Below, piece after piece: positions 4,761 to 22,598 of a DNA stretch of 50,821 bases. The position numbers and the translations under genes are program-made. This stretch comes from a virus (taxonomy: Duplodnaviria; Caudoviricetes). The stretch is taken from IMG/VR virus record IMGVR_UViG_3300026551_000004, positions 1 through 50,821 of that record; one strand, written 5' to 3'. The notes under the pieces were generated by a model, which searched no databases, had not been told where the DNA came from, and saw only the letters and a program-made list of their open reading frames with translations. The number at the start of each line of letters is the position of its first letter. Position 1 is the first letter of the stretch.

Positions 4761-5043
4761 TCAGCAGTATCCAACCGCATCAATGGTTGGAAATGATACT
4801 AGCCATTATTGGTTTGTTCATTTACTTTATCCTCAAAGATAATAGGAGGATATGATAGGATGGCATGGCGTATATGTAAAGTACCAGGATGCCATAAAAT
4901 GAAACGTATTCAACCGTTCAATGCTAATACAAAACATCCTTGGTTGTGTTTCACACACAGACAAGAGCTGCAACAGAAAAGAATAGAACATTTAACCAGA
5001 ATGACTAATGTTAAACTATTGACTAAACTCTTTACCTCGAAAT

Positions 5044-5309
5044 AAACTCCGTAGCCGACTGCGGAGTTTTCCAACCGCTTGAGCTGATTTCCTCAGACCT
5101 CAGCTCGCGGTTGGTTTTCTACCCTAGCTGGCGAAAGCCAGCGTCGACGTTGCCAAAGGCAACTCGAAAGCTCAGAGAGAACGCTTCCCCACGGTAACCA
5201 CCGGCGAACTCTCTGGGCCTCGCCCCTCAGTATTTTTGTTCGCCCTTAGGTACTGAGGGGCACTTATTCTCAGGATACCCACATGAAACCTGGGTATCAC
5301 CAGAATAAG
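5044..5309 (+). ncRNA. Array of seven consecutive hairpins (structured leader or ncRNA)
   Basis: Stems at 5044-5069, 5071-5114, 5127-5142 (GAAA loop), 5149-5163, 5170-5218, 5222-5261 and 5263-5309; several G-U pairs fit + strand RNA. Confidence 0.6.
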
Positions 5310-5324
5310 CGAATGGAGTGAAAC

Positions 5325-5822
5325 ATGATGTACGAGACTATCGTTCGTCTCTTTGATACGTCTCAATTTAATACATGGGTGTTCAATAACCCTGTGTTAT
5401 TTTTGTGCATCCTTACACTTGGTTTAAGCACAGGATACTTTCTCTTCCCCCGTCTTATGTTGATTTACCTGTACCTCAGACATAAGCGTCGTCTGTGGTC
5501 ATGGCAAATACTTCGGGGGAAGCAGATGAGCAAAAGGGCGAGAGATCAAAAGCTAGGAGAACGTCTATACGACTTTTGCCTAGACGAGATCAATTCAGGA
5601 AGAATGACCCACAAGGAAAAACGACGTTATCTAAGAAACATAGAAATGGCGTTTGAGCTGGAACCTGGGACGCTGATACCCAAGCCATCCATTCATGAGC
5701 GCAAACGTCGAACTCTAGGTAGACTTTCTACTGAAGGAGCTAGTAAGTTTACTGAGAAAGTATCAGCAGCCGCACAGCCGCTTAAACAACGGTTGTCTTC
5801 TCTTATCGCAGGAAAGGTGTAA
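5325..5822 (+). CDS. Membrane-anchored hypothetical protein
   Basis: GGAG RBS; hydrophobic segment VLFLCILTLGLSTGYFLF followed by a basic domain. Confidence 0.7.
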   Translation: MMYETIVRLFDTSQFNTWVFNNPVLFLCILTLGLSTGYFLFPRLMLIYLYLRHKRRLWSWQILRGKQMSKRARDQKLGERLYDFCLDEINSGRMTHKEKRRYLRNIEMAFELEPGTLIPKPSIHERKRRTLGRLSTEGASKFTEKVSAAAQPLKQRLSSLIAGKV

Positions 5823-5827
5823 ACATC

Positions 5828-7195
5828 ATGTCGACTGTTAGCCGGACTTGTTTGGTCTATGCCAACAAAGGCAATCTACCTCCGGATGATTACTTGGCAC
5901 GTGTAGCTGCCAAGTACAACTCTTGGTACGGTTTTGCATTCGTCCAAGATGGCGAGATCATTTACGACATGGCCGCTGAAAGTGCCACTGCCGACGGTAT
6001 CAAACTGTTTCTCCAAAACAAGGAGATTGAAGGCGTCGACAAGATTATGGTTTTCGGCAAAGAAGCGAACAGCGTCACTCTTGACCCGAAAGATGCTGAT
6101 CACCCAAACATTCAGCCACTCATCTTGATTGAAGAAGGCGAAGGCAGCAACGCCGTACCTAAGTGTCTCGTCTTCATTGACGGAGAATTCCCTGGACTGG
6201 AAAGCAACACAGCGGACGAAGGTCGGCCGTATTTATTCTGTGGTCAGTATCTCAATCCCAAGATCCAAGAGAAATGGGAAGACTCTGGAGCAGATGTTGC
6301 GAAGTTTCTGGAGAAGATCAAACGGCCAGTCTTTCAGACTGACATCGAGAACTATGATAAGGAAATCGCTGTTGCCGTACTGTGCCCCGGCGATGGTGGT
6401 TTCGTTTACTTCGCAGCTAGAGACTCCCACGATTATCCCTGGGGTTTCACTAACGATACCTGCGGATGGGAAGACAAAGTCCCTACGTCTGGGAGTCCGT
6501 CTTCAACGGTAACCCCTGGTAAACGGGGTAGACTGACATCATTGATGACAAGTGTGGCACCGGCTGCAAGCGATGCAGTTGTCGACAATACTTCATCTGT
6601 TATTCTGTATGAAGGGCAGCTACCTGCTAACATCATTAAGAATAACGACATCCGTGCTGCATACAAGAAATACCACGGACGTGATGAACCTCCGGGGTGG
6701 AAGAACGGAAAACCATGGGTGTCTATTCTCCCGAACATGGTGGACAATGCAAGACAACAAGGATGGAACATCCGTACATCAAAACACCTCGCTGCTCAGG
6801 CTCCCATATCACCTAGCGGTACAGAGGCTCCGCCGCAAATCCTCACCGATGTGATGAAAGACAAACTGCTGAAGTTTGTTAGCGCTATTGATGCTAACAC
6901 TCAGCAAGTCGTATCTCCGGAAGAAATGGAGAAGAATGAGACAGCGTCTCCGACATTCTGGGATGATACTGGAATGACTTTGGAAACAGGCGTCAAAGTC
7001 TTTGGTGGAAAGGAAGAGCATCGTACTACATTGATTAAAGAAAATCCTACGGCTACTTCCAAACTTATTCGTGACTTATGCTACGCTCTCTTTCGCCAAG
7101 ATGCTGCAATCGAAGCGCTCACCGAGCCTACGCCTAAAGCACCAGCTGAGCCTGCGGTTGCTGTTACCCCAGCGAAGAAGTTCTCTATGAGATAA
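5828..7195 (+). CDS. Degenerate class II glutamine amidotransferase (Ntn)-like N-domain with a long C-terminal extension
   Basis: CLVYANKG...YGFAFV, NIQPL (vs NxHPF) and FIDG (vs HNG) are spaced like GATase-II; the Cys is not N-terminal. Confidence 0.5.
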   Translation: MSTVSRTCLVYANKGNLPPDDYLARVAAKYNSWYGFAFVQDGEIIYDMAAESATADGIKLFLQNKEIEGVDKIMVFGKEANSVTLDPKDADHPNIQPLILIEEGEGSNAVPKCLVFIDGEFPGLESNTADEGRPYLFCGQYLNPKIQEKWEDSGADVAKFLEKIKRPVFQTDIENYDKEIAVAVLCPGDGGFVYFAARDSHDYPWGFTNDTCGWEDKVPTSGSPSSTVTPGKRGRLTSLMTSVAPAASDAVVDNTSSVILYEGQLPANIIKNNDIRAAYKKYHGRDEPPGWKNGKPWVSILPNMVDNARQQGWNIRTSKHLAAQAPISPSGTEAPPQILTDVMKDKLLKFVSAIDANTQQVVSPEEMEKNETASPTFWDDTGMTLETGVKVFGGKEEHRTTLIKENPTATSKLIRDLCYALFRQDAAIEALTEPTPKAPAEPAVAVTPAKKFSMR

Positions 7196-7198
7196 CAA

Positions 7199-7274
7199 TA
7201 ATGCGCAGTCCACCCTAGGACCCCCAGGACTGCGTATTAGCCCCCGGCCATGCGCCACACACTTGGTCGGGGGC
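7199..7274 (+). promoter_or_regulatory. Tandem long hairpins (possible RNase III or stability elements)
   Basis: TAATGCGCAGTCC/GGACTGCGTATTA and GCCCCCGGCCA/TGGTCGGGGGC. Confidence 0.6.
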
Positions 7275-7295
7275 ACTTATTGAAAGGATATTATT

Positions 7296-7535
7296 ATGTT
7301 ATATGATCCTCCAGCAGGATGGCGATATGGATTTCCTAAACTTTATTTACCTCTGACAGGTGAAACAATCGAACAAACATTACTTCGAGATGGTTATCCA
7401 CAACATGAAATAGATAATGCCGGTGCTAAATATGTTAGATTTTTAGGTTCAAATCCGGAGTCTCACGATGCACAACCCGTTCAGCAGCAAGAAACTAAAC
7501 CAAGATTGGTTGGACAAGATTGCAGAGGAAACTGA
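7296..7535 (+). CDS. Small hypothetical phage protein
   Basis: AAGGA RBS; DPPAGWRYGFPK...GYP motif. Confidence 0.65.
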   Translation: MLYDPPAGWRYGFPKLYLPLTGETIEQTLLRDGYPQHEIDNAGAKYVRFLGSNPESHDAQPVQQQETKPRLVGQDCRGN

Positions 7536-8277: not shown

Positions 8278-9810
8278 ACGAGTACAATCATTGAACAACA
8301 CATTCCCTGTGACCGTTGTGGTTCTTCAGATGCTAAGTGTATTTGGGATGACGGTCATGGTTTCTGTTTCTCTTGCCAAACATTCTTTCCGAGTGAACGC
8401 CATGGGACCTCGGCCAATACCAAGGAATATACTTACGAGTATGTTCCTTGGCGTGGCGTAACTAAAGAAACAATGCAATTCTACGGTGTCAAAACTAAAG
8501 TAGACGCTGATGGTAAACCTATTGAGATTATATTTCCTTATCCTAATGCATCCAATAAGATTAGAAAGATTGAGGAAAAAGAATTTAGAACTGAGGGTGA
8601 TATATCCAAAGCTGGTTTATTTGGTCGTGATAAATTCTCGGCCGGTAGTAGCAAATTCGTTACTATCTGTGAAGGAGAACTCGATGCTCAATCGCTCCAT
8701 CAAGCTATCAACTCTCCTGTGGTCAGCGTTCGTAGTAGCACTACTGCTGCTAGCGATGTCACTTTGGATAGATCCTGGGTTGACTCATTTGAGAGGATCT
8801 ATTTATGCTTCGACAATGACCGACCTGGCAAAGAAGCTCTGGGCAATGTTGCCAAGCTATTCGACTATAATCGGGTTTATCAAGTAAAGCTTTCCAAACG
8901 AAAAGACCCGAATGAGTATCTACAGGCAGGTGAAGCGGCAGAGTTAAAGCATATCTGGTGGAATTCTAAGAATTACCTGCCTGATACCATAGTATCGTCC
9001 TTCGATGAGTTCGAAGAAATCTTAAATGCCGATCTGCAATATGGGTTTCCATATCCATGGACAACCCTAACGGAGATGACATATGGGATCCGAACAGGAG
9101 AATCAGTTCTCATCACGGCTCAAGAAGGAGTCGGAAAAACAGAATTTCTCCACGCAATCGAGTACAAGTTCCTCAGAGAAACCGATGAAAACATCGCCTC
9201 CATCTTCCTCGAAGAACCCAAAAGAAGACATCTACAGGCTATTGCAAGTCTTGAGCTTGGTAGACCTGCGCATATTCCCGCAGTTGATCTCACACAAACT
9301 GACATCATGGCTGCTGTCCGAAAAGCTATATCGTCGGATGGCCGTTACCACCTGTACAATCACTTTGGGAGTGTGGATCCAGATACACTTCTGGATGCTA
9401 TACGGTTTTTACGTACTGCCCGTGGCTGTCGCCGTATCTTCTGTGATGGTATTACTCTGGGCGTTAGCGGTCTTCAAGGAGAAGACGAAAGGAAAGCTCT
9501 CGATTACCTCACCAACAGACTAGAGATGATGGTGAAGGAACTAGACTTCTCTTTCATCTTCAGTAGCCACGTGAACGATAACTACCAAACACGTGGCTCT
9601 CGCAATACTTCTAAGGTTGCGGACATACGTATAGATTTAACAAGAGACTTAACCAATGCCGACAACACCATCAGGAACACCACAGATATCTCAGTCTCAA
9701 AAAACAGGTTCTGTGGACGAACTGGACCTGCTGGTCGACTCCTATTTAACCCTAACACGTATTCCTACGTGGAGGCATCTAATGACAACCAACGGGAGAT
9801 GGCAGCATGA
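8278..9810 (+). CDS. T7 gp4-like DNA primase-helicase
   Basis: Zn finger PCDRCGSSDA...FCFSC upstream of the ATG 8473 call; TOPRIM CEGELDA and FDND; Walker A QEGVGKT; RGS; KNRFCGRTG. Confidence 0.93.
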   Translation, partial: TSTIIEQHIPCDRCGSSDAKCIWDDGHGFCFSCQTFFPSERHGTSANTKEYTYEYVPWRGVTKETMQFYGVKTKVDADGKPIEIIFPYPNASNKIRKIEEKEFRTEGDISKAGLFGRDKFSAGSSKFVTICEGELDAQSLHQAINSPVVSVRSSTTAASDVTLDRSWVDSFERIYLCFDNDRPGKEALGNVAKLFDYNRVYQVKLSKRKDPNEYLQAGEAAELKHIWWNSKNYLPDTIVSSFDEFEEILNADLQYGFPYPWTTLTEMTYGIRTGESVLITAQEGVGKTEFLHAIEYKFLRETDENIASIFLEEPKRRHLQAIASLELGRPAHIPAVDLTQTDIMAAVRKAISSDGRYHLYNHFGSVDPDTLLDAIRFLRTARGCRRIFCDGITLGVSGLQGEDERKALDYLTNRLEMMVKELDFSFIFSSHVNDNYQTRGSRNTSKVADIRIDLTRDLTNADNTIRNTTDISVSKNRFCGRTGPAGRLLFNPNTYSYVEASNDNQREMAA

Positions 9811-11062: not shown

Positions 11063-11308
11063 ATAAACAGATATACTAATCTTCCTAATAAAATCTATAG
11101 ATTTGGAGATAATACTCATTGTCTTGTTTTTAGAAGAAAAAGAGGATGGAGTTACACTTGTAGAATTCCAATAGAAGGAAAAAGATTTATTCAAATGTCT
11201 CTTAATAATCATACTTTTGCTGAGTCAGAAGAAGATGCTAAAAGTAAATCTATTCCTTCTTTATTTGATCTAAAAGAAAGACTATCTGGTTTACTTCTTA
11301 CAGCATGA
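11063..11308 (+). CDS. Possible hypothetical protein lacking a canonical start
   Basis: Stop-free frame 11048-11308 in AT-rich DNA, ending in an ATGA overlap with the polymerase start; ATA at 11063 is a candidate start. Confidence 0.4.
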   Translation: MNRYTNLPNKIYRFGDNTHCLVFRRKRGWSYTCRIPIEGKRFIQMSLNNHTFAESEEDAKSKSIPSLFDLKERLSGLLLTA

Positions 11309-13239
11309 GAGTAGTCTTAGACATAGAAGCTAATGGTAAAGATAACCCTACTAAAATATGGGTTATCTGTTGTCTGGATATCGACACTGGTAAACTACAT
11401 ACCTTCAGGAGAGTCAGCGATGATCCCGTACAGAAAGAAGAGTTTCTGGTATTTAGTAAGCGCGTCAATACTTGGATTGGCCATAATATTATCGCTTATG
11501 ACTTCCCCGTTCTCTCCTCTCTTCTTTCTCTTCAAACTCCTCCTCTTAATTGTAATAGGTGTATTGATACTCTTATTGTTAGCAAACTTAACGATTACTC
11601 CAGAGGACAAGGACATTCCTTAGAGTCTTACGGGGAAGAACTAAACTACCCCAAGAACCTCTTCTCTGACTGGTCTAAATACTCTCAAGAACTGGAGGAT
11701 CGTTGTGCAACAGATGTTCGACTCAATCTACTGGTTTACAATACTCTCTTCGATAGCTACATTAAGCATAGCTGCAATAAATCCGCTATTACTACAGAGC
11801 AGGAGTTTCAGCAGGATTGCGTGGACCTTGGTAACACTGGCTTTGGGTTTGCCACTCCTAAATGTAATCTTCTTCTAGAGAAAGTAACCAGGGAATTAAA
11901 GGAACTTGACGATGACATCAGACAATCCTTTCCTCCGCGCTTGCACTGTATTCGTGAAATCACTCCCAGATACACCAAATATGGGACTCTTAATAGGACG
12001 GACTTCCGATGGGTATCTGGCGGTGATGTATCGGAATTCAACGGAGGTTCATTCTGTAGATGTGAATACCGACCCTTTAATCCTAGCTCTCATAAACAAA
12101 TTATTCGCATCTTGCATAGTGCAGGTTGGAAACCAACAAGTAAAACCAAAGGTCACATTGAGGCCCTCCGCAACAGACAGACTCTCCCAAGCAGGCTACA
12201 GGAGATACAAAAGACCGGGTGGAAGATCAACGAAGAAAACTTAAGTACTTTACCTTCTAGTGCCCCATCCCCTGCTCGTGCGCTTGCAAGGCGTATCTTG
12301 CTTGAGTCCAGGCGTCGCACTCTCACTGAGTGGACAGGGTTAGTGGCGGAGGATGGACGCATCCACGGTAGTTTTCTCAGCATTGGTGCCTGGACTCACA
12401 GGATGGCTCACCAGAAGCCAAACATGGCTAATATTCCCAAAAGCCATGATCTTGAAGGAAAGGTTAAGCTTCTTGGGTCAGAGATGAGATCTCTATTCTG
12501 TTGTAGTAGAGACCGTCTATTGGTGGGTGTAGATGCGGAGTCAATACAACTCCGGATCTTTGCCCATTACATAGATGATGAAGAGTTCACTAACTCTCTT
12601 ATTTACGGTAAGAAGGAGGACAAAAGTGACCCACACAGCCTCAACCAAAGAGTACTCGGTAGTGTTTGCAAAAGCAGGGAAGCCGCCAAGCGTTTCATCT
12701 ATGCATTTCTACTCGGAGCGGGACTTGGAAAGCTATCTGAGATACTTGGGTGTGGAAGAGAGGAGGCGGAACGTGCTCTTGCGAAACTTATGGAGCGATA
12801 TACCGGTTTCGACTACCTTAAGAGAACAGTTATTCCAAGAGATGCCCGTAAAGGCTGGTTTACAGGACTGGATGGACGCAAAGTTAATATACCTGGAGTG
12901 GACGTGGGGGAAAGACGGCATCTGGCTATGTCTGGCTATCTTCAGAACGGAGAAGCCATCATAATGAAGAAAGCAAGATTAAATTGGAAGAAAAAGATTG
13001 ACTTAATCTTTCCGAAGGAGTACAACATCAAACTAGTTAACTTCGTACATGATGAATGGCAAACTGAAGTACCTAATGATTTAATGATTGCTCATCAAGT
13101 AGCGAAGATTAAGTGTCAATCACTGGTAGAAACAGGAGTAGAACTTAAACTAAAGTGTCCATTAGCAGGTAGCTATGGAGAAAACCACAATGATCCACGA
13201 ACGTGGACAATAGGGAGTAATTGGAAAGTTACACATTAA
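11305..13239 (+). CDS. Family A DNA polymerase with 3'-5' exonuclease
   Basis: ExoI DIE, ExoII HNIIAYD; motif A DAESIQLR, motif B KRFIYAFLLG, motif C VHDE. Confidence 0.97.
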   Translation: MRVVLDIEANGKDNPTKIWVICCLDIDTGKLHTFRRVSDDPVQKEEFLVFSKRVNTWIGHNIIAYDFPVLSSLLSLQTPPLNCNRCIDTLIVSKLNDYSRGQGHSLESYGEELNYPKNLFSDWSKYSQELEDRCATDVRLNLLVYNTLFDSYIKHSCNKSAITTEQEFQQDCVDLGNTGFGFATPKCNLLLEKVTRELKELDDDIRQSFPPRLHCIREITPRYTKYGTLNRTDFRWVSGGDVSEFNGGSFCRCEYRPFNPSSHKQIIRILHSAGWKPTSKTKGHIEALRNRQTLPSRLQEIQKTGWKINEENLSTLPSSAPSPARALARRILLESRRRTLTEWTGLVAEDGRIHGSFLSIGAWTHRMAHQKPNMANIPKSHDLEGKVKLLGSEMRSLFCCSRDRLLVGVDAESIQLRIFAHYIDDEEFTNSLIYGKKEDKSDPHSLNQRVLGSVCKSREAAKRFIYAFLLGAGLGKLSEILGCGREEAERALAKLMERYTGFDYLKRTVIPRDARKGWFTGLDGRKVNIPGVDVGERRHLAMSGYLQNGEAIIMKKARLNWKKKIDLIFPKEYNIKLVNFVHDEWQTEVPNDLMIAHQVAKIKCQSLVETGVELKLKCPLAGSYGENHNDPRTWTIGSNWKVTH

Positions 13240-13240
13240 G

Positions 13241-13408
13241 ATGAAAACATATCAATTTGAATTTGAATATATGGTACCAGAGTTTGCTACTGTGACTGTG
13301 GAAACCAAAGATGATATTAATACAGCCAAGACTTTGGCTATGGCAGAATTTACCCGGATGTATCCAGAAGCAATTGATCCGGAGATTGTTAGTACTACCA
13401 GTGACTGA
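13241..13408 (+). CDS. Small hypothetical protein (55 aa)
   Basis: MKTYQFEFEYMVPEF...; fills the gap between the polymerase and SSB genes. Confidence 0.55.
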   Translation: MKTYQFEFEYMVPEFATVTVETKDDINTAKTLAMAEFTRMYPEAIDPEIVSTTSD

Positions 13409-13883
13409 ATACGTTTATTTAAGTGGTAAGTGTAAGTGGTGTAAGGCCATTACACCTAATCAATTCGGAGACTGGAGGACTGATCTTTATCCTGACGACA
13501 AGTCTTTAACAAAGATCATGGAACTTAAAGCGAGAGGACTTAAGAATACGCTAAAGAAAGATGACGATGGACCATGCATGTCTTTCAAACGTCCCATGAC
13601 AAAGATGATGAAAGGCAGAGCAGTTAACTTTACAAACCCTGTTGTGGTTAACAGTGCTGGAACGCCTATTAATGAAGCAATAGGCAATGGTTCAGAAGTT
13701 ACAATTAAACTCTTGATTTATCCATTTAGAACTCCCAACGGTGCCAGTGGTATCGGTGCCAGATGGGAGTCAGTAAGAGTTGATAACTTAGTTCCTTGGG
13801 AATTGAAAGACTTTGCGAGTCCAGAGGAAAGAGAAGCTATCTTTGGACTTAAGGAAGCACCTAAAGGTGAATATAACTTCTAA
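13401..13883 (+). CDS. Single-stranded DNA-binding protein (T7 gp2.5-like)
   Basis: LSGKCKW...IGNGSEVTIK...RWESVRV, aromatic C-terminal residue; GTG start at 13401. Confidence 0.75.
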   Translation: MTEYVYLSGKCKWCKAITPNQFGDWRTDLYPDDKSLTKIMELKARGLKNTLKKDDDGPCMSFKRPMTKMMKGRAVNFTNPVVVNSAGTPINEAIGNGSEVTIKLLIYPFRTPNGASGIGARWESVRVDNLVPWELKDFASPEEREAIFGLKEAPKGEYNF

Positions 13884-14529: not shown

Positions 14530-14808
14530 ATGTCTTTTAAAGATTATCTCACCGATGGTGAGTGGGATGATTTTATGTTTGACGAAGAAGAGGAGAATAC
14601 TATGACTATTGATTTCACGAAACCCGTTTACCTCGTTGCTTGCCAGGACTCTAGCGCCTTGTTCAATGATCTTGACGGGGCAATCAAGAAGGCAGCAACA
14701 AGCGCGAAAATGGATCGAGACGGTGACGATTATTTCGTCATGCAAGCGATCAAGCGTGTGGCTACGCCACGTCCCGAGGCAACCATTACGGATATGCCTG
14801 TTGCCTAA
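14530..14808 (+). CDS. Small hypothetical protein (paralogue group; alternative start 14602)
   Basis: RBS before both 14530 and 14602; FNDLDGAIKKA. Confidence 0.7.
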   Translation: MSFKDYLTDGEWDDFMFDEEEENTMTIDFTKPVYLVACQDSSALFNDLDGAIKKAATSAKMDRDGDDYFVMQAIKRVATPRPEATITDMPVA

Positions 14809-14946
14809 CTACTCATCTAGTTAGGTATCTCCTGCCAGTAACAAAGAACCTGGTAGAGCCCGCGGTCAAAGGTTCTAATACCAATGTGCGCGGCGGGCAT
14901 AGTTCATTAATAGTTAGGCAATTTGCCCTCACTTGGAGTAAAGATC

Positions 14947-15189: not shown

Positions 15190-16750
15190 TTTGTTACTTG
15201 CCACTAGTCGCATATATCACCGGGTGGTAATAAGCTCTAGTAAAGCTGACTAGAGTACCGAGTGCAACTCTGACCTACTGAAGTCCTTTTGTCCATGACT
15301 ACATGATGAGTGCGATACCGCGGGAATAGAAACAGTAGGAAACATTCCCGCCTTGGTAGTAAAACTTCATGTAAGATGCAACTCAGGAACGTGGGTGAGT
15401 GGTGGTAGAGTGGTGATCTACCCTAGTGAGGAGAGACCCAGCGTGTGCACGTAATGTACATCCATATAGGTGTGAAAGCAGACTGAGGCTTCTCAATCCA
15501 TTTAGCTGCAGGATACAAAAAGCAGCAAGACTGGCTACATCAGTACTTGTACTGGTTCGACTCCAGTCCTACTCGACTGACAGGTATCGAGAGTGTGGCG
15601 CAATATGGCAGACGCAACTGATGATGCCACCCGCAACGTCACCTGTGGAGGCTAAAAACGGAGACAATAGGACGTGTACCTCTATGTCCGGTGGCAGACG
15701 ATCAGCCGTCTGAACCACAACGGAGTCCATACCCTAGTGGTCAGACAACATAGAGCGACGTCATCCACGCCTCACGTGGAGTAGCTTTGAATAATCGTCT
15801 CATACGTAACAACCTGAGATGTGTCTCTCGGGCTAGTGTTCCTAGTATAGTATGGGACAAGTAGGATACACACCGCTCTTTGGACGGAGTGTAGGTTCCC
15901 AGATGGTTCGAAGCCATCATGGTGGTAGTGGGACCAGCTAATCCCTCAACGGGAACGCGAAATACCAAATGGTAAAGGAACCGAGGCCAGTCCTAAACGT
16001 CTTCTCTCAGAGTCCCTGGGAAATAAACCGACGTGTAAGCAAATCACATTGACAGAAACGAGACAGTCTTGTGTACCAGGCCACCGCTGAAATAGTGCGG
16101 ACTGGAATAGACAGCAGCAGATTACTGCTTCCTCTATTGTAAGCAAGATACCTCTCAAGGATGTATGCAGGGTGCAACCTGTAGATGCGGACTACCAACC
16201 CGCGTGTGGTAAGGCGAATACTGTTGAAGAGGTGAGGAAGAGTGTGATCCGAAAATAATGGGTTTCTTAGGTGTTACAGCAACGAGCAGAGCGAGTCTGC
16301 TGTTGCTAGACTGTTGAGGCTCCATTAGCTTCTCTGGTCGTCTTCTTTCCCTTTTGAAGGCAGAGGAAGCCGTTAACGATCACCGATGAACAATACCCAC
16401 TCCAAGCAGCAGCTGCTATAGTGCGCAAACTCACATTGACCGTCTTGTCTGGGATGCTAGACAGAATGGTGACGAGCAGTAGAATGTGTAGTCTTAAGTC
16501 CCAGCCGCAAGTTCCCGACTTCTCACACAGTCGCAGACATAAAGCCGCCGGATGCAAGACAACTGAGTACTCGGCCTGACTCGGGCAGGAAAGGTATTCT
16601 ACATAAGTCTCTTGTGAGGTACTCAAGTTCTACTTACCCAGTTCCGGCAGTCAACCGTAAGCTGGACCATCGTAGAGATTGGAGGTGTTGGATGAGGCAT
16701 AAGTATATTACTCCACCTATCCGCCCCCCTTAAGTTCACCAGTATGCCGA
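15190..16750 (+). ncRNA. Candidate large structured non-coding RNA (one RNA or a cluster)
   Basis: No credible RBS-led ORF over 1.55 kb; continuous stems, T-loops, a pseudoknot and a permuted tRNA-like domain; boundaries approximate. Confidence 0.75.
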
Positions 16751-17038: not shown

Positions 17039-17286
17039 AAAGACCAGAATTAAGACCCCATCATTTTGATGGGAAAGTTTCCAAAGTAGTTGAAGAATGC
17101 GGAGAAGTATTGCAGGAAATAGGTAAACTTCAGAGACACGGAGCCTTTGCAACTGATCCATCTGACTCAACTAAACACTATGATAACATTTCTCCCTTGA
17201 AAGCAGAGCTTCTTGATTTGCAAGATGCAATAGAACAATTACTTATTGAGCGAATATTTGAAATCAATACACACACTAGTACCTGA
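17035..17286 (+). CDS. MazG-like nucleotide pyrophosphohydrolase
   Basis: KVVEECGEVLQEIGK...AELLDL (EExxE...ExxD). Confidence 0.75.
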   Translation: MKRPELRPHHFDGKVSKVVEECGEVLQEIGKLQRHGAFATDPSDSTKHYDNISPLKAELLDLQDAIEQLLIERIFEINTHTST

Positions 17287-18124
17287 CGTTTACGAACTCT
17301 TACAAACGAAGGGATGGTACAATGAAACTCTACTTTCCTACTTCAGCGCTCAACTCAATACGAGCCTTAAAGCGCAATGGTCAGATAGTGACGGTACACA
17401 TCGCGGACTTAGATTATCTCGAATGGGAGATCAGTGTCCGAGAGCTTTATGGTACAGCATCCACCAGCCAGAACTGGCCGAACCTCTCCCATCTTGGGCT
17501 AATTTTAAATACACGTACGGACACATAATAGAGGCTTTGGCTCTAACCTTAGCTAAGGCCGCAGGCCATCGAGTTGAGGGAGAGCAGGATGAGTTGGTCG
17601 TCGATGGGATTAAAGGTCATCGCGACGCTGTTATTGACGGCTGTCTCGTGGACGTTAAATCTGCTACAAGTTTTAAAGTGGCAGAGAGCAGAAGGGGATC
17701 TTTGGAGAAGAACGATAATTTTGGCTACCTCGATCAGCTTGATGGTTATGTACTTGGATCTGCTAATGATCCTTTGGTTACTGTAAAGGACAAAGGATAT
17801 CTCTGGTTCATCGATAAAACCTTGGGGCACATGCATGTCTACGAACACACCGCGAGACCCGAACGGATACTTCATCGAGTTAACGAATATAAAATCGTTG
17901 TTGAGCGAAGCTCAGAGCCTGCTTGTACGTGCGGAACAAGACCAAGAGGAACATCCGGAAACATCGAACTCGATGTTAGAGCAAGCTATTCACCGTTTAA
18001 ACACAGCTGTTTCCCGCACCTTAGGACTTTCCTCTACTCTGATGGGCCGGTTTATCTTTCTAGAGTTTCAAAGACTCCTGATGTCCCAGAAATTAACAGA
18101 CAAGGAAGAATAGTTTATCACTAA
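17258..18124 (+). CDS. PD-(D/E)XK (Cas4-like) exonuclease
   Basis: LRLSRMG..CPRALWY, YGHIIE, GHRDAVID...VDVKS, YLDQLDGY; probable TTG start MKSIHTLV. Confidence 0.85.
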   Translation: MKSIHTLVPDVYELLQTKGWYNETLLSYFSAQLNTSLKAQWSDSDGTHRGLRLSRMGDQCPRALWYSIHQPELAEPLPSWANFKYTYGHIIEALALTLAKAAGHRVEGEQDELVVDGIKGHRDAVIDGCLVDVKSATSFKVAESRRGSLEKNDNFGYLDQLDGYVLGSANDPLVTVKDKGYLWFIDKTLGHMHVYEHTARPERILHRVNEYKIVVERSSEPACTCGTRPRGTSGNIELDVRASYSPFKHSCFPHLRTFLYSDGPVYLSRVSKTPDVPEINRQGRIVYH

Positions 18125-18470
18125 GACTAGGAATAAGTTCGAGGAAAGAACTCGAAGACAGTTAATTCGTGCCAAGATGGGGTATGGATATGAAACAGAA
18201 AAGATATCTTATACGATCTATGGCACTTACACCCCTGATTTTATTATCAATGACAATTGGTTTCTTGAGTGCAAAGGTTATTTCAGACGAGAAGATAAAC
18301 GGAAGCTTGCTGCAGTTAAACACTGCAATCCGTCTCTTGATATCCGGATCTTGTTTTATTCCTATAACGCCAGAGATGTTGAATGGGCAGTCAAGAACGG
18401 CTTCCCATACGCAATAGAAACCATACCGACGGAGTGGTTAACATGCAAACAATCTACACAATCGGCTTAG
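18117..18470 (+). CDS. T7 gp3-like endonuclease I / Holliday junction resolvase
   Basis: RNKFEE upstream of the ATG call; YTPDF, ECKG, DIRILF, WAVKNGF. Confidence 0.88.
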   Translation: MTKTRNKFEERTRRQLIRAKMGYGYETEKISYTIYGTYTPDFIINDNWFLECKGYFRREDKRKLAAVKHCNPSLDIRILFYSYNARDVEWAVKNGFPYAIETIPTEWLTCKQSTQSA

Positions 18471-19588: not shown

Positions 19589-19822
19589 ATAGTCCATAAT
19601 TACGCAAAGGAAAACAAGTGGGAAGACTCTAGTGCTCAAGTTAAGCGCAGAGAGGCGCGCAATAAAGCCCGTCTAAGCGCAAAGCGTCTGGGGAAAGTCC
19701 ACAAAGGAGATATGAAGGAGTTAGATCATGTTGGATACCACCGCACTGGTTCACTCGATCGCGTCCCCACCCGCGTTGTCTCACGACACGCCAACCGCAT
19801 CAGACAACCTCCACGTCATTAA
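19589..19822 (+). CDS. Small HNH-like phage protein (absent from the ORF track)
   Basis: VHNYAKE...REARNKAR...GKVHKGDMKELDH...RVVSRHANR; GGAGG 9 nt before ATA. Confidence 0.7.
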   Translation: MVHNYAKENKWEDSSAQVKRREARNKARLSAKRLGKVHKGDMKELDHVGYHRTGSLDRVPTRVVSRHANRIRQPPRH

Positions 19823-20006
19823 TCACTTCACAGAAGATGGCGTGGGTTATCTAGAAACAGCATCAGATATTGAGAACTTCAATAGTGCTGATGCTACTCG
19901 GTCATTCTTCCAAGACTCGGAAGATTTGACGGATGAAGATGATGATCTTGTAGAAGCAAGAGAACGTTATTTCGATGGAGAAGACGATACGGTTGATTAA
20001 CTGAGT

Positions 20007-20132
20007 AGACAGGACCTGTAGCTCAAGCAATAGAGTCCCACCTGTATGAGCCGGCGTGATCCGGTAGGAAACTGTGGGAGGTCCGGGGGATACGGTGAGA
20101 TCCCGTAATAAGATGCCCGGCAGGTCCTGTTT
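20007..20132 (+). ncRNA. tRNA-like RNA with expanded anticodon and T arms
   Basis: GGACCTG/CAGGTCC acceptor; TA; GCTC-AAGCAATA-GAGT D arm; CCCAC/GTGGG; AGGT; CCGGG/CCCGG. Confidence 0.65.
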
Positions 20133-20147
20133 ATTAAAGGAGAATAT

Positions 20148-20738
20148 ATGAACAGACAAAAGAAAGAACAGAGTAAGAGAATGAAAGACAATTGTGTAAC
20201 AACTAAGACAATTACAACTAGTAATGAGATAGGTTCAATTAGTACTACGTTTACACCTACATTATATAATATGTTATTCCCTTTTCGGCCTGGGGATTTA
20301 ATACCTACACAGGCTAAACCAGTACAGGAGAAGAACATGTATTTCAGTGAAGATACCCAGGACTATCAGGCACGCAATCGTCTCTATTGCCGTGCAGCAG
20401 ATGCCATTCGCGCTCATGAGATCCATCTTCGTGATGTGTATCATCTGAACGATACTGATACGAGCAAGTGGTCGCAGGAGGATGCTGTCCAGGCAATTAA
20501 GGACGGTAAGTTTACCTTCCGTCGACCGGATGAGGCGAAAAAGCCTGGTACTTTCATCTACTGTGGTCTCGATATTCGTTACCGTGATCCGGAGAAGCCG
20601 GCTGATGAAGTTGGTTTTAAGACCGCCCGTGAGAAGCTTTCCGAGGCTTTCGAGACGGTGGTCGATCATATCTCCGTCACCGATCCGAAGGATGCTCTGA
20701 AGAAGGTTGACTCCTTCCGTGAGCATAAGTTCCACTAA
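20148..20738 (+). CDS. Hypothetical protein (second in-frame start at 20337)
   Basis: AGGAG RBS before both ATGs; last gene of the left arm. Confidence 0.75.
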   Translation: MNRQKKEQSKRMKDNCVTTKTITTSNEIGSISTTFTPTLYNMLFPFRPGDLIPTQAKPVQEKNMYFSEDTQDYQARNRLYCRAADAIRAHEIHLRDVYHLNDTDTSKWSQEDAVQAIKDGKFTFRRPDEAKKPGTFIYCGLDIRYRDPEKPADEVGFKTAREKLSEAFETVVDHISVTDPKDALKKVDSFREHKFH

Positions 20739-20847
20739 TCCACGTGGGAACTAAGAGAGTGGATCATCAGAGGTCGGGTCAGTATACCGAAGCAAAAAGC
20801 GGGCTCTGATGTAAGAAACTACAAGTGCCTCGCAAGCACAAATGACT

Positions 20848-20881
20848 AAACCCCGGCACCGAAAGGTGACCGGGGTTTTTT
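20848..20881 (+). terminator. Intrinsic terminator at the junction of the two arms (possibly bidirectional)
   Basis: AAA-CCCCGG-CACC-GAAA-GGTG-A-CCGGGG-TTTTTT. Confidence 0.88.
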
Positions 20882-20930
20882 AGTGTCTAACGTGTCGTTT
20901 ACTGCATAAACGCACAAATTCTAGATTAAG

Positions 20931-22598
20931 TTATTTTGAAGGCTTTAATTTACCTTGTAGCATTTTAAGATAATCATCTTCTCTAATAGTCTTACCTTCA
21001 GCACGCATTGTATTAATCTTGTATTCATGTATTCTTCTCTGAAGATCTTCGACAAATGCTTTTTCTTTCTCTAGAGTCTGTTCCATTTCTTCTTTGAACC
21101 AGTCAGGTAAATCTTCCTTACCATATTTATTAAGACCTAAATTTTCCATTTGCCATCTTATCGCTGCTCTAGAAATGCCTAGTTCTTTAGCAATATTACT
21201 AATAGATTTACCAGATTCTAAGCCTTCTTTAATAGCTTTATCAAACAATCCTTTTACCACCCCTTTAGCAACTCGGGCCATACCTAATTCACCAGTCCCT
21301 ATAATATCCTCTGGCTTAACATCTCTGAGAATCTCTTTAAGCTTAGAACCTTCTATCTGATGTTTCTTAGCCAAATCTTCAATTGTCTTATCAGATATAG
21401 GAGAATAAGTATTATCTCTATCTTCGGGATTAAACGGTAATGTCTGGAACTTAGGTTGTTCAAATCTTGGATCATAAGCATCGAATGTTTGTTGTAATTT
21501 ACGGGGAGGAAGTCCGTGTTTCCACCAACCTAAAGGTTCTTTACCAGTGTCACCACGTCCTTCGGTCTCACCTGCATTTAAAGGTAAACCTGGTTTCCAC
21601 CAACCACCGTATCTATCATCAAAACTACTAGGTTTAAGAATAGTAGCATCAGGTTGGAACTGAACAGTACGTACTGTACCTGGTTCTGTTTCTTCCTTAA
21701 CTACCTCATTGTAATCAATATCAGGATTATCTTGACCAGTCTTCTCCCAACCTTTAAGAGTAGCTTCTACTCTATTATGAGTGAGAATAGCTAGGTTCTT
21801 GTCTTTATTATTTAATATAGCATCTCTAATACCAGCAAAAGATCTACCTTTAAAATCATTAAAGCTTTCACCGCCTGGAACAGGTTCATCCTGCTTGTTC
21901 TGGGCGTATTCTTTTAATACTGGATTAGAAGTAGAACAAGGTTTACCTGCGTGTTCACCTACATTCCACGTACGTAACCTAGGATCATACTGTGGAACAA
22001 TACCTAATTTCTTCCCTATGATCTCAGCAGTCTCCTTGGAGCGCTGTAAATCAGAAGCCACTAGTGTATCTACCCCTTTTGATTTTAACTCATCAGCGGC
22101 CTTCTCAGCCTCTTGGCGACCCCTTTCATTTAGAGACACAGGTTCCCAACCACGTACAGTATTATCTGCATTCTCTGTAGTTTCACCATGACGTACAATG
22201 TGTACATTTTTAGGTTCATCTAACTGACCTACTTCAGGAGGTTTAGTATTCTGTCTTTTTGTTTTATAACCAACACCTCCACCTTGTAATCCTTTAATCT
22301 CATACCAATCTTGTAACTCTTCTTTTTGAGAAGGATATAATTTATCATGCCATTGTTGAGATTCTGGACTACCAGCTTTATAAGGGTTTATATAATCAAA
22401 CTCATCTTCTTTACCTTCAGTATCGATACCTTTTAGACCAGCCATACGAGTATCTTGCTGGTCTTCACCGGCATTCATATGAGGCGTAATAGTTAACTTA
22501 AGTGGTTCTTTCTTTTGCGACGGATCAGCAACCATAGGTATACCTAATGCATGGTGCATTTCATCTTCATAAGAATTATCTGGTGTACCTATAACCAT
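20931..22598 (-). CDS. Multidomain protein: histidine phosphatase (PGM-like) domain plus C-terminal HTH
   Basis: HIVRHGETTEN, SDLQRSKET, PGGESF, ILTH; SISNIAKELGISRAAIR. Confidence 0.85.
   Translation of the reverse strand: MVIGTPDNSYEDEMHHALGIPMVADPSQKKEPLKLTITPHMNAGEDQQDTRMAGLKGIDTEGKEDEFDYINPYKAGSPESQQWHDKLYPSQKEELQDWYEIKGLQGGGVGYKTKRQNTKPPEVGQLDEPKNVHIVRHGETTENADNTVRGWEPVSLNERGRQEAEKAADELKSKGVDTLVASDLQRSKETAEIIGKKLGIVPQYDPRLRTWNVGEHAGKPCSTSNPVLKEYAQNKQDEPVPGGESFNDFKGRSFAGIRDAILNNKDKNLAILTHNRVEATLKGWEKTGQDNPDIDYNEVVKEETEPGTVRTVQFQPDATILKPSSFDDRYGGWWKPGLPLNAGETEGRGDTGKEPLGWWKHGLPPRKLQQTFDAYDPRFEQPKFQTLPFNPEDRDNTYSPISDKTIEDLAKKHQIEGSKLKEILRDVKPEDIIGTGELGMARVAKGVVKGLFDKAIKEGLESGKSISNIAKELGISRAAIRWQMENLGLNKYGKEDLPDWFKEEMEQTLEKEKAFVEDLQRRIHEYKINTMRAEGKTIREDDYLKMLQGKLKPSK

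Follow-up and report, generated by a model that had tools for sequence, protein, structure and literature searches.

The intergenic element at positions 20007-20132 of the IMG/VR record IMGVR_UViG_3300026551_000004 is tentatively understood as a remodelled tRNA relic, lodged in a fast-evolving intercistronic hairpin slot and acting in mRNA processing or stability. The record, analysed over its whole 50,821 bp and called the window in what follows, is the complete genome of an uncultured soil phage and is metagenome-derived. Between the + strand genes at 19728-20000 and 20148-20738, its transcript is predicted to form a ~130-nt RNA fold with a tRNA-like core. The slot persists in related phages with other interiors, and from this comparison its occupant is probably to be seen as an mRNA punctuation mark, not as a working tRNA.

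Fold and tRNA-like core of the element

Minimum free energy (MFE) and centroid structures (RNAfold) arrive at the same four-way junction (coordinates in Table 2), with pair probabilities of 0.98 for the closing helix and 0.80-0.97 for the other helices. Folded as 126 nt the element reaches -49.5 kcal/mol (z score -2.83), a value equalled by 0 of 200 shuffles, and folded as 141 nt it reaches -54.3 kcal/mol (z -3.04; 1 of 200 shuffles equally good). The acceptor-like stem is lengthened to 12 bp (20007-20018/20121-20132) and, when the flanks are included, the MFE closing helix extends to 15 bp (20004-20018/20121-20135) at a mean pair probability of 0.98. All 21 base pairs of the core are intact, with zero mismatches. 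In the predicted fold the 15-bp helix is able to stack on the 5-bp T-like stem to give ~20 bp, after which an AU-rich single strand follows. The interior taken alone (20020-20120) is no more stable than its shuffles (-30.4 compared to a shuffle mean of -30.2 kcal/mol, z -0.05; 98 of 200 shuffles fold as well), and the excess stability therefore lies wholly in the closing stem. The element is non-coding on the + strand, each frame of which contains 3-4 stops, and antisense open reading frames (ORFs) across it belong to no Pfam family. It forms an island of 56% G+C in a genome of 41%. Three G.U pairs, those of the outer closing helix among them, form on the + strand only; the - strand folds with -49.4 kcal/mol (z -3.65), and the + strand fold is better by ~5 kcal/mol.

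With stems of 7(+8)/4/5/5 bp and linkers of 2/0/4/0 nt, the MFE structure has the geometry of a tRNA cloverleaf. When the closing stem was kept and the 102-nt interior was dinucleotide-shuffled 2000 times, three branches arose in 358 of the shuffled interiors and tRNA-like linkers, under a relaxed definition, in 16; the strict pattern of 2 / 0-1 / 4-5 / 0 was obtained in none. For the D-arm word TAGCTCA-N6-AGAG the window has one occurrence, compared to 0.01 expected. The invariant positions were threaded by eye, after the fold had been seen, on the Rfam tRNA consensus as returned by cmscan for the real tRNA of a relative. Matches were found at 14 of the 29 upper-case positions (U8, A9, G10, C11, A14, A21, G24, C32, U33, A44, G52, G53, C61 and C62), and 11 of the 15 that are missed fall in the three loops (U16, G18, G19 and U20; A37 and A38; U54, U55, C56, A58 and U60). 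The remaining four are C25, replaced by a U that still pairs as G.U, G30 and C40, which together have become an A-U pair, and the discriminator A73, replaced by U. Geometry, D-arm word and invariant positions thus agree that the tRNA core is more than a chance resemblance, with odds that are post hoc.

The tRNA core is whole where it builds the junction, and the rebuilt parts are the anticodon loop, the elbow (T loop together with the D-loop GG) and the CCA end. The anticodon-like loop measures 32 nt and is partly paired, its 8x8-nt internal loop beginning CU-GUA, and it keeps C32 and U33, yet no cut of it yields a 7-nt loop. The T loop is not UUCRANY: it is 28 nt long and starts GGAUACGG. The D loop, AAGCAAUA, is without G18 and G19, so that no elbow is present, and no CCA is found 3' of the acceptor-like stem. 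These features bear on the function offered in a preliminary description of the element, which was made from the sequence and considered it a tRNA-derived non-coding RNA (ncRNA), possibly a decoy for anticodon nucleases. Its non-coding nature and tRNA shape are borne out, and the core looks tRNA-derived from the linker shuffles, the D-arm word and the invariant positions. The function as decoy fails because no anticodon loop is presented, and the nuclease PrrC, in the account given by a T4 review (PMC3014915), recognises the anticodon sequence together with its modifications and stem.

The same description had listed the stems, loops and linkers, the missing D-loop GG, the missing CCA and the position relative to the downstream ribosome binding site, all of which were found where it had placed them and in the MFE fold; it had also anticipated that tRNA scanners would miss the element, as they do. 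ARAGORN at default settings returned 0 tRNA and 0 transfer-messenger RNA (tmRNA) genes in the whole window, and again 0 with introns allowed at the normal threshold. Rfam 15 had no match in the whole window at gathering score. At E<=10 on the 131 nt and 351 nt around the element, it gave no tRNA, tmRNA, YrlA or other relevant family, chance matches to sR2, ZEB2_AS1_2 and the SBWMV pseudoknot being all that appeared; a match to a known Rfam family, named beforehand as a finding that would overturn the description, was thus not obtained. The Rfam tRNA model (RF00005, threshold 29 bits), run on the whole genome, found nothing at E<=10. Lowering the ARAGORN threshold to 80% with introns allowed does produce a 'tRNA-Tyr(gta), 25-nt intron' at 20013-20117, which we reject as noise because the same setting makes 102 calls in the 50.8-kb window (27 without introns) and because the acceptor stem of the call is poor. 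An archaeal-type intron was likewise discarded, with no bulge-helix-bulge motif seen by eye and a bacterial host indicated, and look-alikes of hammerhead, twister-sister and kink-turn motifs in the internal loops did not fit, by eye and in Rfam.

Each rebuilt arm carries an inner hairpin, and both hairpins contain the 11-nt word CGGYGWGATCC (20052-20062 and 20093-20103), for which there is no further exact match in the window and none in the relatives. Their loops read C-GUGA-U and U-GAGA-U(C), and we would take them for GNRA-type tetraloops on a Y.U step. The resemblance between the anticodon-like and the T-like arm is matched by 45 of 2000 shuffles. The element as a whole is single-copy in the genome. 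Outside it, blastn against phages gave only a 29-nt chance match (E=5), and a 23-mer of it had 0 matches in the viral contig collection and 0 in the genome contig collection.

The hairpin slot in related phages

Eight related contigs were found through the flanking proteins, one of them viral (G001, 28.7 kb) and seven from metagenomes; further scans with the downstream protein returned G001 again as the only viral contig and none among the genome contigs. Along the window, G001 aligns collinearly with 74-86% nucleotide identity; the alignment breaks at 20002 and resumes at 20134, with a 62-nt hairpin in G001 as compared to the 131-nt element of the window. In soil-run contigs of relatives, 70 nt of different sequence stand between the counterparts of positions 19999 and 20137. 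Across the element, two near-identical strains do not differ.

The slot is filled in all eight related contigs by a branched hairpin unrelated to the element; closing stems measure 10-13 bp and interiors 29-76 nt, and z scores lie between -2.6 and -5.5. Together with the window, the four further sequence types in these contigs (Table 1) make five. The surroundings are constant: in 8/8 contigs the closing helix lies just past the same TAACTAA stop context and 4-7 nt upstream of the same AAGGAG. None of the 8 relatives has a tRNA-like interior or a tRNA call at the slot, and Rfam found no match to the relatives' slots (L004, L005 and L009 not included). Direct reading of the stems reveals compensatory change. 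The L002 and L006 types have GAAGCCC/GGGCUUC in common, and four inner pairs are changed on both sides; the L007 and L008 types have GUGGG/CCCAC in common, and four outer pairs are changed on both sides. The helix has therefore been maintained while its sequence turned over. As an additional observation, in L010 the slot hairpin is separated from the stop codon by an extra small G+C-rich hairpin (2105-2135), GCCGCAG-CCAU-GCGGC followed by UUCU.

Table 1. Hairpin types occupying the slot in the related contigs
Type	Closing stem	Interior	Tail	z score
L002 = L004 = L005	12 bp	33 nt	UUUU	-5.49
L006 / L009	12 bp	~51 nt	UUUU	-3.55 / -2.57
L007 / L010	10+3 bp	~29 nt	ACCAC	-4.22 / -4.67
L008	10 bp	76 nt	ACCCAC	-2.67

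A role as cis-regulator, the other function proposed in the preliminary description, survives in one respect, for a structured hairpin stands directly upstream of the ribosome binding site in 8/8 contigs, and not in the other, the tRNA shape being present in 0/8. From this distribution, any action in cis would belong to the closing helix and not to the cloverleaf. Regulation specific to a ligand or a gene appears unlikely, since five unrelated interiors precede one and the same downstream gene (59-73% amino-acid identity in a five-way alignment).

Function of the slot and alternative explanations

The favoured reading of a remodelled tRNA relic in a hairpin slot places selection on a unit consisting of the long closing helix and a compact interior, which would act on the + strand polycistronic mRNA. 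Punctuation of the mRNA would arise from a nuclease-resistant block to 3' exonucleases, shielding the 3' end of the upstream cistron. The unit may also provide an entry point for a structure- or double-strand-specific endonuclease, either an enzyme of RNase III type acting on the stack of 15-bp helix and T-like arm or RNase E acting in the AU-rich tail, and a cut of this kind would free the last + strand gene from its coupling to the preceding genes. In this phage the U-rich tail may contribute added partial termination. The tRNA-derived interior would be material that the lineage happened to recruit, its acceptor extended through pairing of leader and trailer, and would be neither decoding nor charged. 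If this is correct, a phage tRNA gene has been converted such that the four-way-junction core was kept and every part serving translation was replaced, and the intercistronic hairpins of the lineage are slots in which the closing stem is kept and the interior turns over freely. The annotation of non-coding elements in phages would benefit, given that such elements escape tRNA scanners and Rfam alike, and the element could serve as a testable substrate to find out if phage mRNAs are punctuated by tRNA-processing or double-strand RNases of bacteria, as mRNAs are in organelles. The weight of these suggestions is at present modest, for a single metagenome instance known only as a sequence.

Several points count against this interpretation. 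We infer the function of the closing helix solely from its persistence. The tRNA-position matches were set by eye on a known fold, and the chance estimates built on them are accordingly post hoc. Two of the five slot types are without a U-tract that the others have, hence the function of the slot may differ between types. Treating the interior as a passenger leaves the mismatch-free core of 21 pairs, the shared 11-nt word and the resemblance of the two arms unexplained, which hints at selection on the interior.

Because the mismatch-free core and the matching inserts are unexplained in this way, a rival stays alive in which the element is a stand-alone tRNA-like ncRNA. Leader-trailer helices serve as processing stalks around rRNAs, and the 15-bp helix would be such a stalk, from which the RNA is excised by host RNase III, RNase P or RNase Z. 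We regard this as unlikely. The excised RNA would present two similar GNRA-capped hairpins and function in trans, one conceivable role being the titration of a host RNA-binding factor or defence protein, and the slot would be a site for hypervariable ncRNA cassettes. The core without any mismatched pair agrees with this proposal, as do the 14/29 invariant positions with misses mostly in the rebuilt loops, the duplicated word found only at 20052 and 20093, the likeness of the arms at the level stated above and the G+C island, and there is precedent in T4 rnaC, a 139-nt stable RNA with a T arm of tRNA type and expanded arms. The proposal has to contend, however, with a single instance that 0/8 relatives carry and of which no copy exists in the phage, viral-contig and genome collections, with determinants for RNase P and RNase Z that are poor (paired leader and trailer, no CCA, no T-loop/D-loop elbow), and with a promoter scan that found no promoter of the element's own. 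In its most specific form, with small structured RNAs cut from the cassette site at their closing stalk and, in this phage, a tRNA-core scaffold whose two GNRA-capped hairpins target a host or defence factor in trans, the proposal is rather unlikely; if it were true, a phage ncRNA would have been built by re-purposing the tRNA fold.

Transcription termination offers a further possibility, which we consider rather improbable. The G+C-rich closing helix with the UUUAUU after it would be a leaky intrinsic terminator or attenuator that partly stops transcription and lowers expression of the last + strand gene, the interior being filler. The U-rich end of the 3' closing arm may double as a weak terminator-like tail; three of the five slot types (window, L002 and L006/L009) have a U-rich tail after the stem, and the U-tract is paired to an A-rich run upstream, a feature known from bidirectional terminators. 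The helix is nevertheless retained in the L007/L010 and L008 types, with ACCAC in place of the U-tract. Moreover, the interior of 102 nt compares poorly with the 3-8-nt loops of efficient terminators, a terminator scan makes no call at the site, the clear terminator of this phage (20851-20875) looks quite different, and there is no room for a promoter of the downstream gene's own.

That the element is merely a dead tRNA gene, a pseudogene without present function whose closing helix and hairpins are accidents of decay or insertion, we judge to be quite improbable. Such an origin would agree with the failure of every tRNA model to accept the element, with an interior no more stable than shuffled sequence and with the presence or absence of tRNA material across the lineage, including an orphan T arm (both described below). 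Neutral decay should, however, break stems, whereas 21/21 core pairs are kept and only loops have changed; the structured hairpin at the slot in 8/8 relatives, with its compensatory stem changes, is equally difficult to reconcile with absent function. A DNA-level element (miniature inverted-repeat mobile element, recombination site, or cruciform or origin structure) is very improbable, since the perfect 10-bp inverted repeat at its ends, the cassette-like replacement with sharp borders and the good - strand fold are opposed by its single copy in the genome and absence from the phage, viral-contig and genome collections, by the lack of a target-site duplication beside the inverted repeat, by inverted repeats that differ in every relative (which argues against a recombinase site), and by the three + strand-only G.U pairs and the better + strand fold.

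Regarding known systems, long irregular helices that keep their position and not their sequence occur between the cistrons of T7-type phages, as RNase III sites or stabilising hairpins. A T7-type RNase III site comprises about two turns of irregular double helix and is cleaved by RNase III. These sites would seem the obvious analogy for the slot, as both involve intercistronic helices on polycistronic mRNA; the T7-type sites are single hairpins with an internal loop, whereas the element forms a four-way junction. In terms of function, the closest known system may be the t-elements of plant mitochondria, tRNA-like structures in mRNAs. As presented by Forner et al. 2007 (PMC1920247), it is proposed or has been shown that 5' and 3' mRNA ends are marked by t-elements through RNase P or RNase Z, and simple acceptor-like stem-loops can stand in for them. 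The phage element resembles the t-elements of that account as a non-canonical cloverleaf-like structure within an mRNA beside coding regions, and their plain stem-loop substitutes parallel the mix of tRNA-like and plain hairpins at the slot. Unlike the element, those t-elements keep the GGTTCRANYCC T arm, whose two matches in the window, at 7446 and 15554, lie outside the element; they are also organellar, and their cleavage has been mapped.

Among phage RNAs, the closest object is arguably T4 rnaC. T4 rnaC and rnaD (species 1 and 2 RNA), listed with unknown function in the T4 review (PMC3014915), are phage-encoded like the element and similar to it in size (119-139 nt). When folded in this study, the 139-nt rnaC adopted a multibranch tRNA-like shape with enlarged arms and the canonical T arm CCGGG-UUCGAAU-CCCGG. 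It differs in that it belongs to a tRNA gene cluster and has this canonical T arm, whereas the element lies between protein genes in a 15-bp stalk, is without a T loop and has no sequence similarity to it. Certain tRNAs of Lak megaphages carry 'enigmatic introns' in the anticodon loop, as reported by Devoto et al. 2019 (PMC6784885), with tRNA-Tyr(GTA) among the cases given there. Like these, the element is tRNA-shaped with extra anticodon-loop sequence, and its loop starts CU-GUA; the Lak genes of that report, however, are recognised as tRNAs once the insert is allowed, whereas for the element ARAGORN with introns finds nothing at its normal threshold, the T loop is replaced too and no cut restores a 7-nt loop. 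None of these families includes the element, which is best filed as a tRNA-like element.

Genome setting and other hairpins of the lineage

The genome consists of two convergent arms, the + strand carrying the genes of 1-20738 and the - strand those of 20931-49679. The phage looks lytic and has T7-type replication genes (Table 2), and Shine-Dalgarno sites, an intrinsic terminator and the CCA-encoding tRNA of a relative point to a bacterial host. PHROG found no family match for 20 of the 22 other + strand ORFs that were scanned. The upstream gene ends with a TAA (19998-20000) placed 3 nt before the closing helix; its acidic product has a relative at 56% identity (tblastn) and no family in Pfam and PHROG. 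The AAGGAG of the downstream gene is unpaired or weakly paired, with flanking pair probabilities of 0.34-0.70, and for the downstream protein Pfam, PHROG, PDB and Atlas all gave no match. Between the arms lies an example of a plain terminator in this phage, consisting of a ~11-bp stem with one bulged base and a 4-nt loop, an A-run before it and T6 after it, and the intergenic element looks quite different. Just beyond it, the first - strand gene (20931-22598) encodes a 555-aa protein with a His_Phos_1 histidine phosphatase domain at residues 133-278, unusual for its place beside virion-type genes of 733 aa and 1664 aa.

Table 2. Coordinates in the window of the parts of the element, the flanking genes and other annotated features
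Feature	Position	Strand	Basis or remark
Closing helix, 5' arm (AGTAGACAGGACCTG)	20004-20018	+	MFE; mean pair probability 0.98
Acceptor-like stem GGACCTG/CAGGTCC	20012-20018 / 20121-20127	+	Inner 7 nt of closing-helix arms
TA (UA) linker	20019-20020	+	Sequence and fold
D-like arm GCTC - AAGCAATA - GAGT	20021-20036	+	One G.U pair; 8-nt loop without GG
Anticodon-like stem CCCAC/GTGGG	20037-20041/20074-20078	+	Closes 32-nt loop; arm spans 20037-20078
Inner hairpin GCCGG-CGTGAT-CCGGT, anticodon-like arm	20050-20065	+	Fold, pair probabilities
Variable-like linker AGGT	20079-20082	+	Fold; Rfam consensus here Aggc
T-like stem CCGGG/CCCGG	20083-20087/20116-20120	+	Closes 28-nt loop; arm spans 20083-20120
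Inner hairpin TACGG-TGAGATC-CCGTA, T-like arm	20091-20107	+	Fold, pair probabilities
Closing helix, 3' arm (CAGGTCCTGTTTATT)	20121-20135	+	Sequence, pair probability
Primase/helicase	8473-9810	+	T7-type replication protein (Pfam/PHROG)
Family A DNA polymerase	11305-13239	+	T7-type replication protein (Pfam/PHROG)
gp2.5-like SSB (single-stranded DNA-binding protein)	13311-13883	+	T7-type replication protein (Pfam/PHROG)
Cas4-like exonuclease	17246-18124	+	Listed with T7-type replication proteins (Pfam/PHROG)
Endonuclease I	18177-18470	+	Listed with T7-type replication proteins (Pfam/PHROG)
Upstream gene, 90-aa acidic protein	19728-20000	+	ORF list
Shine-Dalgarno AAGGAG of downstream gene	20137-20142	+	Sequence; fold with flanks
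Downstream gene, 196-aa ORFan	20148-20738	+	ORF list; ATG at 20148; last + strand gene
Bidirectional intrinsic terminator	20851-20875	both	Folds of 20729-20935, both strands; between convergent genome arms

Other tRNA material in these phages is of variable presence. G001 (L012 13312-13386) has a genuine tRNA-Ile(GAT) with encoded CCA (ARAGORN; Rfam 55 bits), located just past a conserved 11-bp hairpin; the corresponding place in the window (7245-7456) has no tRNA and ~210 nt of unrelated sequence, within which the word GGTTCAAATCC at 7446 does not fold as a T arm. Two strong hairpins of 13 bp and 11 bp stand in the window at 7199-7275, directly 3' of the gene at 5828-7195, and the second of them is conserved in G001. 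An orphan canonical T arm, ACTGG-TTCGACT-CCAGT, is present at 15551-15567 of the window, in surroundings of 200 nt that are 91% identical to G001 with indels of 1 and 2 nt; there is no acceptor partner within 650 nt upstream, and Rfam at E<=5 returned only a chance microRNA match. The lineage thus appears both to gain and to lose tRNA material, as suggested by the tRNA-Ile of G001 and the orphan T arm of the window. The ~1.2 kb from 15190 to 16420, in which the orphan T arm is included, is without a convincing + strand gene.

Upstream of the gene at 5325, the interval 5036-5329 forms an array of seven tandem long hairpins with stems of ~4-14 bp (-138.5 kcal/mol, z -11.1). Compared pair by pair with G001, the array retains 58 pairs without change and 13 through a change on one side, which produces a + strand G.U in 10 cases; another 5 have changed in a compensatory manner, 16 no longer pair and 6 are affected by gaps. 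The last hairpin of the array (5263-5309) has the same 8-bp closing stem in G001, where it encloses a branched structure of 113 nt as compared to 47 nt in the window. These pair changes suggest that hairpins in this phage are kept as + strand RNA. A conserved closing stem with a free interior is thus a property of + strand RNA hairpins in the lineage. A separate intergenic element at 14799-14927, for which Rfam has no match, consists of a 12-bp closing stem with three inner hairpins and contains the 8-nt word TAGTTAGG twice, so that CCTAACTA can pair with either copy. Identity to G001 is 90% in this element, compared to ~75% in the flanking coding DNA, and one A-to-G change keeps a pair as + strand G.U.

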